Position numbers: made by a program. Shown here piece after piece: positions 21,001 to 24,000 of a stretch of DNA of 64,000 bases. The DNA lies in the NCBI GenBank assembly GCA_963815195.1, contig CAWFGE010000013.1, positions 1,056,001 to 1,120,000 on the forward strand. The letters are read 5' to 3'. The DNA comes from an uncultured Planctomycetaceae bacterium (GTDB lineage: Bacteria; Planctomycetota; Planctomycetia; Planctomycetales; Planctomycetaceae). The stretch's first letter is position 1; each line of letters starts with the position of its first letter.

Positions 21001-24000
21001 CGTTGTCCGTCAACTGAAAAACGACATGTGTCGTTTTCTGGTCGGAGGACAGCTTCATGGGCAAGCCGGAAGGCCGGTTGACGCCGGCGCAGCATGAGAT
21101 CATGGACCTCGTCTGGCAAGCGGGCACGGCGGGGGCCACGGTGACGGAGATCTGGACCGCGATCGCGGACAGCCGGTATGTCACGCGGACCACGGTGTTC
21201 AATCTCGTCGAAAACTTCGCCGCCGTGCCCCGCGATGCCGCCGCGCGGGAGTTGGCCCGGGAGTTTGTGGACGATTTCTTCGGCGGCTCGGCGGGCGATC
21301 TGGTGACGAGCCTTCTGGGTTCCAAACGCCTGCGGAAAGCGGATGTCCGCAAACTCCGCCAGAAACTCGATGCCCTGCTCGCCGAAATCGGCTTATCCGA
21401 CGAAGACCGGCCGAAATAATCGGCGACCTTTTCATCACGACGTTTTGATGTCGGCTTTCTTGCTGTTGGTGCTGGCCGCCGGAATTGGGAGTGCCTGTAG
21501 TTGGCCGCTGCTCCGCGCGGATGGGGGACCGCGTGCCAAAGCCGATGCTGCGTCTGAGGAAAGCACGAACAGCAGCTGAGTTCTCAAACCCCCCAACAAT
21601 CGTTGTCGGAGGATTTGATTCGTTGGACAGCGCCACTTTTTGAATGAAAGACTGTCAATCAAGGGATTTGTCGCAGCAAGATCTACTTTCGTTTCGGATT
21701 AGTATTTTTCTACCTCACAAAACGGTTCACGGCGTAGGGTGGACCCGAACCATCTTGCGCCCCCGAAAGCTGCCACGCGACTCGCCCCGCAAACGAAGCG
21801 AGGCTTGAGGCGAATCCCTCCTCCGCCGGGCATTTCCCCAAAATCATGCGTCATGGGACGGATTAGGTCAATTCGTCCGAGTTCCCGGTTAGGCAGGATC
21901 TGCATGTCACACGTGCGGCGTTCAAGGGGCTAGGGCGGAAAAGTCGATGGCCATTCGTGCGGAGAACCGAGGGAGCGCTCTCCGGTCGGCTGAAGGATTC
22001 CAGCACGAACCGTCACCTTGTCGCGTCCTCCTGACCGAATCCGCTTCACCACCAAAAACTCAGCTTGTGAAGCGGATTAGGACATGATGGCGTACCGCAC
22101 GAATGACCTGCCTATGACCATCCGCCGTTACTCGCTCGGTTTGTGCGTGCTTATCGCCTGGGCTTCGATCTCCGCCTTAGGCGCGGCTTCGGAACGGCGA
22201 ATGACGCCCATCGTGCGAGCGATCCAGCGCATCAAAAATTCCGCCGTCAACATCCACACCGAAAAAACCACCTACGGCGATTCCCTGTTCGCCCCCTCCA
22301 AAGGCCGCAAGGTCAATGGCATGGGAACCGGAGTGATCGTGGACGAGCGGGGCTACATCGCCACGAACTATCACGTCGTCAGCGGCGTCGATTCCATGCG
22401 GTGCACGCTTTACGACGGCAGCACCTTCATGGCCGAGGTCGTTTCGTTCGACAGCGAAAAAGACATCGCCATCATCAAAATCCAGCCGAGCCGCTCGCTC
22501 GACGTAATGCCCCTGGGCACCTCGTCGGATCTGATGCTGGGCGAAACCGTACTGGCTTTGGGCAATGCCTACGGCTACGAGCATTCCGTGACCGCGGGGA
22601 TCGTCAGTTCCCTCTCGCGGGACGTGGAGGTCAACGAAAAGCAATCGTACGAAAACCTGATCCAAACCGACGCCAGCATCAACCCGGGCAACAGCGGCGG
22701 TCCGCTGGTGAACCTCGACGGCGATGTGATCGGAATCAACGTGGCGATCCGGGCCGGCGCCCAGCGGATCGGGTTTGCGATCCCGATCGACGATGCCCGC
22801 CGGACCATCGCCAAACTGTTGAGCATTGAGCAGATCGACGGGACCTGGCATGGGGTGGTGGCCGAGGATATCAAAACCGCGGAAACGCAGGAACTCCACG
22901 TCCGCCGGATCCAACCCGACAGCCCGGCGGGGAAAGCCGGCCTCGCCCCCGGCGATGTGATCGTCAAAGCCGGGACGTTGGATGTTTCCGACGGCGTCGA
23001 TTGGGAACGGGCCTTGTTGGGCCGGCGGGCCGGCGAGAAAGTCCCCGTGCTCGTCGAGCGCGGCGGAAAGCAGGTGAAACTCGATCTGATGCTCGCCGCC
23101 TCCAAATCGCCGGGCGTTCCCGCCTTCGCCCAGAGCGTGGTTCCCGCGGCGGTGGATCATCCCGTCCGCGACAAGACCTGGACGCTGTTGGGTATGAACC
23201 TCTCCAAACTCGACGACGAGAACTCGATCATCCGCGGTTCGCGGTATCGCGGCGGGATGCGGATCACCGCCGTCCGCCCCGGCAGTCCGGCCGAGACCAA
23301 CGGCCTCCGCGAAGGCGATGTCCTTGTGGGCCTGCACATTTGGGAGACGGTCAACGCCGAAAACGTTTCCTATGTCCTCGATCACCCCGACTTGGGCAAA
23401 TTCTCGCCGCTCAAGTTTTACATCCTCCGCGGCGGCGAGACGTTGTACGGCCACCTGAGTCTGCTCGGCCGCCAACTCAGCCAGCACAACTGAAAACCGT
23501 TCGCTTCCACGCCGATTCAAACAGTCCGCGCAGCGACACGCCAGGGAAGGCTTGTCCGCTGCGTTTTTGTTTTTCGGATTTTGGGCGATCGAGTGGCCTG
23601 GGCGTTTTCCGTAGCGGCGGCTTTCGGCCGCCGAGATCGTCCCGCACTCCGCACTTTGGCCTCCCCAGCAGACCACTTGACGCTTTGCCGAACGAGCGGT
23701 ATCCTTAAAGTTGTCAGAATTAAAGGTGTTTGTGCGATGAGTTCGATCATTTCCCGCAATTTGGCGCTGCTTCTTGGCCTGCTTCTACGTGGGAGGTCTT
23801 AGGGTCCGGCTCATACGCCAATCAGACGCATACCAAACCCTGAGACCAAATGTGTTGGTTTCAGGGTTTTTTGTTTGGACTTCGTAACAGAAAAAAATCG
23901 TCGGTTCTATTCGTTGTCATCATGGGGCTGACGCCCCACGCTCGCCTTTTTTTGGAGAGAATCCCATGTCCGCCGAACCTGCTGAAGTTGTCCCGCGGGA

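Follow-up and report, generated by a model that had tools for sequence, protein, structure and literature searches.

A Leu-rich leader peptide and two competing hairpins ahead of leuA, very probably a leucine attenuator, in Planctomycetaceae and related planctomycetes

Leucine-rich leaders ahead of leuA are described from outside the Proteobacteria. The leuA leader of Streptococcus consists of a Leu-rich upstream ORF with a terminator and an antiterminator and has no sequence similarity to that of E. coli, which shows that such leaders are met with in new phyla (PMC5314783); the part of that paper accessible to us does not mention planctomycetes. In the accessible main text of PMC4833913, Planctomycetes appear only in statistics on leader-gene spacing, with mention of neither leucine nor leuA; the leader-gene tables of that paper, offered as an external download, could contain the ORFs described here unlabelled. 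The main text of PMC2965389, as far as it was accessible, refers neither to planctomycetes nor to leuA. A description of a planctomycete leuA attenuator was not found in the literature searched, most subscription papers lying outside its scope. The 2010 attenuator survey by Lopatovskaya and colleagues reportedly lists no Planctomycetes in its abstract. Leu-rich leaders before leuA are also said to occur in Actinobacteria as LEU-type elements, where control is translational.

The window analysed here, a stretch of 64,000 nucleotides from the genome of an uncultured Planctomycetaceae bacterium, contains leuA on the plus strand (23966..25570, 534 aa) with a ribosome site GGAGAG at 23954-23959. 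The gene product scores above the cut-offs of TIGR00973 and NF002086 and affiliates with the 2-isopropylmalate synthases. The survey's finding that an uncalled 21-codon leader and a terminator precede this gene was reproduced in its coordinates, in the hairpin (23835-23869, with a U tract) and in the identity of leuA. The leader ORF (23737..23802, plus strand) extends from an ATG at 23737 to a TAG ending at 23802, and seven of the nine codons at 23761..23787 encode Leu (in order TTG, CTG, CTT, CTT, CTG, CTT and the rare CTA), the candidate control codons. It is preceded on the same strand by a sigma-70-type promoter-like site (TTGACG, 17 nt, TATCCT; 23677..23705; one found against 0.2 expected), from whose sequence we infer promoter activity, and followed by an intrinsic terminator hairpin with U tract (23835..23875, plus strand, core 23838-23866). 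Further upstream, an HtrA-type protease gene is closed by another hairpin with U tract (23528..23572, plus strand), and hence the leader probably has a promoter of its own. leuA is solitary: the neighbouring downstream gene is convergent, and leuB and leuC are located on other contigs. The leader peptide matched no NCBIfam or Pfam model and was absent from the protein collection searched. Contigs of a soil metatranscriptome (share 0.05) cover leuA in parts and leave the leader uncovered; mostly less than 95% identical, they probably originate from relatives.

Two further gene arrangements in the window attracted attention. A short ORF at 21057-21419, which we take to encode a BlaI/CopY-like regulator, overlaps a reverse-strand ORF with near-identical peptide stretches, suggesting an inverted duplication. 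At 26463-30611, an ORF of 704 aa is directly followed by one of 676 aa; by their motifs these are presumably a caspase-like peptidase and an S8 subtilase-like protein, respectively, and may represent a defence-type pair.

For the family Planctomycetaceae, 121 genomes from 92 genera were searched and the best 110 full-length leuA places were taken, with 11 genomes with fragmentary matches omitted; removal of three loci with less than 230 nt of upstream DNA left 107 leuA loci. Leaders were recognized by at least four or at least five Leu within eight residues and terminators by a strict pattern. The loci are related by kinship, hence plain counts are given and no P values. At least four Leu were found in 103 of the 107 loci and at least five in 91, and the combination of at least four Leu with a terminator in 100. 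On the reverse strand, four Leu were reached in 7 of 107 loci and five in none, in agreement with the maximum of four in the controls of the survey. Its two other counts, at least five Leu in eight residues and a terminator behind the leader across the best family loci, hold for all 28 loci with upstream DNA among the 30 best. The four loci with fewer than four Leu, inspected by eye, comprise two with other upstream DNA, one with a weaker leader plus terminator and one with an out-of-frame Leu run.

Three individual loci deserve mention, each judged by eye. At L055 (G024) and L076 (G105) the leader is absent within 560 nt of leuA and other coding-like DNA lies directly upstream; this DNA may have displaced the attenuator. 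At L106 (G089) the Leu-rich frame is apparently 1 base off the usual stop motif and runs through the terminator, which is either a real change or an assembly error.

The combination is specific for leuA. On the same strand and with the same criteria, a leader with at least five Leu occurred in none of 29 ilvB, 30 leuB and 29 cimA loci, and at least four Leu together with a terminator in 0/29 ilvB, 0/30 leuB and 3/29 cimA loci. Leader plus terminator were present in 30 of 30 planctomycete leuA loci (including Gimesia and Thalassoglobus, and partly overlapping the main family set) versus 0 of 50 from other phyla. Thalassoglobus neptunius KOR42 (L309) is among the organisms with a leader.

The reading frame itself carries a signal, which points to translation of the leader. 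When the frame was anchored by the RNA motif alone (a TAG ahead of the terminator; usable in 72 of 110 loci), the last 18 codons held 5.9 Leu in the frame of the stop, the other two frames holding 1.1 and 1.5; an ATG in frame was present in 55 loci versus 8 and 5. Third positions of the Leu codons vary, all CUN codons being used in the family leaders. CTA accounts for 117 of the 649 leader Leu codons, about ten times its share of roughly 1.5% in long ORFs of the genome under study, a background set that contains some spurious ORFs. In 82 of 100 family loci (0.2 in shuffles), a strict TTGAC..TAnnnT motif precedes the leader start by no more than 120 nt; a Shine-Dalgarno-like word ahead of the start was seen in only 17 of 100.

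These observations bear on a reading in which a protein, a tRNA (T-box) or a metabolite would switch termination, and the Leu codons would come about incidentally, from an RNA motif rich in C and U. Such an RNA could explain why the terminator arm is conserved in sequence beyond the need of pairing, but both the Leu enrichment and the ATG are confined to one frame, within which third positions range over all CUN codons. Moreover, no T-box, riboswitch or leader model of Rfam matched in the window (E<=10) or in 14 relatives (at gathering score in the relatives), and the cut-offs of RF00512 and of Pfam PF08054 were not reached by either, whereas leuL and thrL of E. coli, included as positive controls, both matched their own families. 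Two Rfam matches in the window, at E 3.6 and 9, were dismissed as chance. We consider a switch of this kind very unlikely and return to the attenuator.

The 5' strand of the antiterminator (segment 2; 23795..23805, plus strand) takes in the leader's final Arg/Ser codons together with its stop and pairs with 23837-23847. This 11-bp helix is the minimum free energy structure of 23795-23850 (-20.9 kcal/mol, z -4.6) and occupies the 5' arm of the terminator (segment 3), whose region 23830-23880 folds at -22.3 (z -4.2). In the folding models the two structures exclude each other. In aligned family loci the terminator pairs at 96.5% of positions, and its two-sided changes number 52 against 16.5. The antiterminator was aligned for the 73 long-tail loci with a common register, with 22 short-tail loci and five loci in other registers omitted; it is 90.6% paired and shows 18 two-sided changes versus 6.2+/-2.1. 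Slid registers, however, yield 10-22 two-sided cells, at far lower pairing, so that the modest covariation of the antiterminator lends moderate support.

Thermodynamic comparisons over 100 loci point in the same direction. Pairing the whole linker with the terminator arm gives a median duplex energy of -18.6 kcal/mol versus -12.2 for shuffled sequences and -8.2 for an upstream window, with z below -2 in 60 loci and above it in the other 40. When the whole leader was scanned with no bound set, 92 of 100 loci had a best partner beginning 6 nt or more beyond the last Leu codon; the start of the partner lies 42-48 nt (quartiles) ahead of the terminator. A fixed window around the stop gave a median z of -1.2 for the antiterminator, with 26 of 102 loci below -2, and is a weak test because leaders with a short tail place the pairing strand behind the stop. 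Also weak is the comparison between own and other loci, in which the own arm ranked as best partner in just 5 of 102 loci, because the terminator arms are near-identical between loci.

The survey had stated that the last leader codons pair with the 5' arm of the terminator. This applies to the 11-bp helix in the window and to the 78 of 100 leaders with a long tail, in which the pairing strand lies within the last codons (median start -6). It does not apply to the other 22, in which the stop comes at most three codons after the last Leu and is itself followed by the strand (median start +4.5); both medians are bounded by a search window that opened 9 nt past the last Leu. Likewise, the ending GRS, described there as usual, is found in 15 of the 28 closest loci but only in 34 of 100 family-wide. 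Where leaders end in RS and stop, the two residues are encoded by AGG in 39 of 44 and by TCT in 42 of 44 cases, codons with genome-wide shares of about 4% and 6%, respectively. The ending is an RNA constraint, since the rare codons are fixed and the short leaders without it shift the pairing strand past the stop; a role of GRS at the peptide level was rejected in view of the fixed synonymous choice of AGG and TCT.

The tail is also the point at which a functional hydrophobic micropeptide would have to be considered, encoded on a small transcript of its own which the terminator merely ends. Such a peptide would account for the Leu-rich composition, the frequent G-R-S-like tail and the presence of a promoter-like site and a terminator around the ORF. 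It would leave unexplained a tail whose synonymous positions are fixed and which 22 of 100 leaders lack, precisely those with the pairing strand behind the stop, as well as the tenfold enrichment of rare CTA codons and an enriched residue that changes with the pathway, Leu before leuA and Ile before cimA (see below). We give this explanation hardly any credence compared with an attenuator.

The position of the ribosome was modelled by equilibrium folding of the nascent RNA as far as the terminator loop, with the ribosome edge assumed at 12 nt. In this model, the median probability in the family that the terminator arm is paired upstream is 0.88 when the ribosome stands on the first Leu codon, 0.83 on the last and 0.33 on the stop; the corresponding values for the window are 1.0, 0.87 and 0.39. 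The drop from the last Leu to the stop exceeds 0.3 in 76 of 100 loci, and a shuffled linker gave 0.53, which the observed value surpassed in 92 of 100. In 25 of 100 loci the modelled arm remains more than 0.5 paired when the ribosome has reached the stop, and a ribosome-free model continues to favour the antiterminator in 70 of 100. The locus in the window has a 1:2 helix in its full minimum free energy structure, and its prefix fold has a z of -2.4. A conserved 1:2 helix above shuffles was not found in the family (median z -0.1); the prefix folds have a median z of -1.4, with 28 of 100 below -2, and a local hairpin with z below -2 occurs in 6 of 78 family loci. The prefix fold often has segment 2 engaged in upstream pairs (median 0.70, with no control run beside it), and CUN codons opposite a purine-rich strand would yield the same by composition.

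We propose that transcription starts just past the promoter-like site and that a ribosome would then translate the 21-codon leader. With Leu-tRNA scarce, it would pause at the Leu codons. Counted from the first base of the last Leu codon, segment 2 begins 10 nt downstream, which would place it at or just outside the edge of the paused ribosome, free to pair with the emerging 5' arm of the terminator, and RNA polymerase would proceed into leuA. With ample leucine, the ribosome would reach the stop, itself located in segment 2, and mask this segment; the terminator would form and transcription would end near 23870. Judged by sequence and folding models, the element very probably attenuates transcription in a ribosome-dependent way, with charged tRNA-Leu as the signal sensed, and it would respond to leucine in the manner outlined. 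The classical leucine attenuator proposed by the survey is supported by the conserved leader, by the competing hairpins and by the way in which these are placed with respect to the Leu codons, all of them above controls.

The leader might instead govern the translation of leuA, by masking of the ribosome site or by reinitiation as in the actinobacterial LEU-type elements, and the hairpin would then be incidental. Besides the Actinobacteria as precedent, a REP-like palindromic repeat (23924-23946) that directly adjoins the leuA ribosome site in the window would fit such a control. This palindrome, however, is a genome-wide repeat with 55 close copies, and the hairpin with its U tract is kept in 100 of 107 loci and covaries strongly. 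The distances are no better suited: a median of 96 nt (range 38-195) separates the terminator end from codon 14 of leuA in the family, and about 90 nt separate the terminator from the leuA ATG in the window. Translational control of leuA by the leader thus appears most improbable, and transcription attenuation remains the preferred reading.

Outside the family, 40 of 92 genomes of the class and 40 of 62 matches of a phylum search were fetched, one of the latter belonging to the class. At least four Leu plus a terminator were found in 29 of 41 loci from other families of the class, representing all 14 families sampled, and in 8 of 39 loci (7 of 24 families) from other classes, a phylum sample that is biased because 129 of 201 genomes were missed at the strict cut-off. 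The scope of the attenuator is class-wide rather than family-wide. Its conservation across Planctomycetaceae, as claimed by the survey, stands with 100 of 107 loci, but the element is not confined to this family and is present in other families of the class and in some other classes. A yeast-type LeuA had been expected in the other families; just one of 121 genomes of the class (G408, locus L151) has one.

A sister device precedes cimA, a paralog of leuA. Of 29 cimA loci, 23 had a terminator and 21 also an Ile-rich leader (three or more Ile in ten residues). These leaders are longer than those of leuA, contain 21% Ile and mostly end with UGA; the antiterminator has z below -2 in 16 of 23 loci (mononucleotide shuffles). 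Similar to the leuA leaders, they share the same layout, with the stop codon often within the pairing strand, and the terminator arms CCCUCAG (cimA) and CCCUGAG (leuA) are about one base apart. The enriched amino acid tracks the pathway, Leu for leuA and Ile for cimA, and this provides the best internal control for sensing. A publication on an Ile leader of planctomycete cimA was not found in the literature searched.

In the genome under study, contig C15 carries on its minus strand an Ile/Val-rich leader of 34 codons (542842) with a terminator (542709). Here cimA is split from its leader by a 1.5-kb insertion sequence, presumably IS481-like, with inverted repeats at about 542513 and about 540985, and this insertion may disturb the isoleucine control of cimA. 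Downstream of cimA follow what we take to be a Uma2-like ORF and then a probable valS. Direct inspection of the 420 nt preceding leuB, leuC, trpE, a second trpE-like gene, hisG, leuS, ilvB and a short LeuA paralog of this genome revealed no terminator. On contig C20, the model matches of trpE and hisG are each broken into two pieces that lie in different open frames (152652-154035 and 328099-328652), which suggests frameshifts or assembly errors. A scan of the whole genome for ORFs with a terminator returned 20 candidates; it recovered leuA but missed the cimA leader, and hence does not argue against further attenuators in the genome. A second Leu-rich ORF of 21 codons with a terminator was noticed on the minus strand of contig C13 (near 1137492 of the reversed contig), before an unrelated gene of 215 aa, and is probably due to chance or a small membrane peptide.

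The leuA leader extends leader-peptide attenuation to a whole bacterial class and represents an RNA/peptide family so far uncatalogued, with well over 100 members that annotation overlooks. More tentatively, Planctomycetia may possess a related attenuator pair (Leu/leuA and Ile/cimA) built on one terminator core, with the stop wired into the antiterminator and without a fixed 1:2 helix; we regard this as possible but somewhat doubtful. Given these two properties, an untranslated leader would read through, the reverse of super-attenuation in E. coli, and retention of the pair would mean that ribosomes stay close behind RNA polymerase. The switch needs the first ribosome within tens of bases of RNA polymerase, and therefore the leader could be used as a coupling probe. 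Transcription and translation are claimed to be spatially segregated in Gemmata, reportedly by Gottshall in 2014. The DNA of planctomycetes is condensed, as the accessible part of a study of P. limnophila describes (PMC5394234), and the PVC group is included in a figure that sets coupled against runaway transcription (PMC13323073, accessible part). Gene deletion and expression of GFP are established in Planctopirus limnophila (PMC5394234). If the class-wide pair existed as outlined, it would imply close coupling of ribosome and polymerase in cells with a condensed nucleoid, and the leader would be a reporter of this coupling.

Of the known systems, leuL of E. coli (RF00512, PF08054) is alike in that a run of Leu codons in a short ORF before leuA is followed by a hairpin-U terminator, and the distance from the last Leu to the terminator is 60 nt in E. 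coli and 57 nt as median of the planctomycete family. In contrast to leuL, the planctomycete leaders show no sequence match to it, are richer in Leu (35% of residues in the family) and yielded no conserved 1:2 helix above shuffles, and unlike the leu operon of E. coli the planctomycete leuA stands alone here, with leuB and leuC elsewhere. The leader thrL of E. coli (RF00506) has the same geometry, with a helix over the last codons and the stop, but senses Thr/Ile and is unrelated in sequence. The leuA leader of Streptococcus differs in its support by transcription start sites and Term-seq, as given in the accessible part of its description (PMC5314783). The mechanism proposed here is classical and similar to that of leuL and thrL; only the lineage and the sequence family are new.
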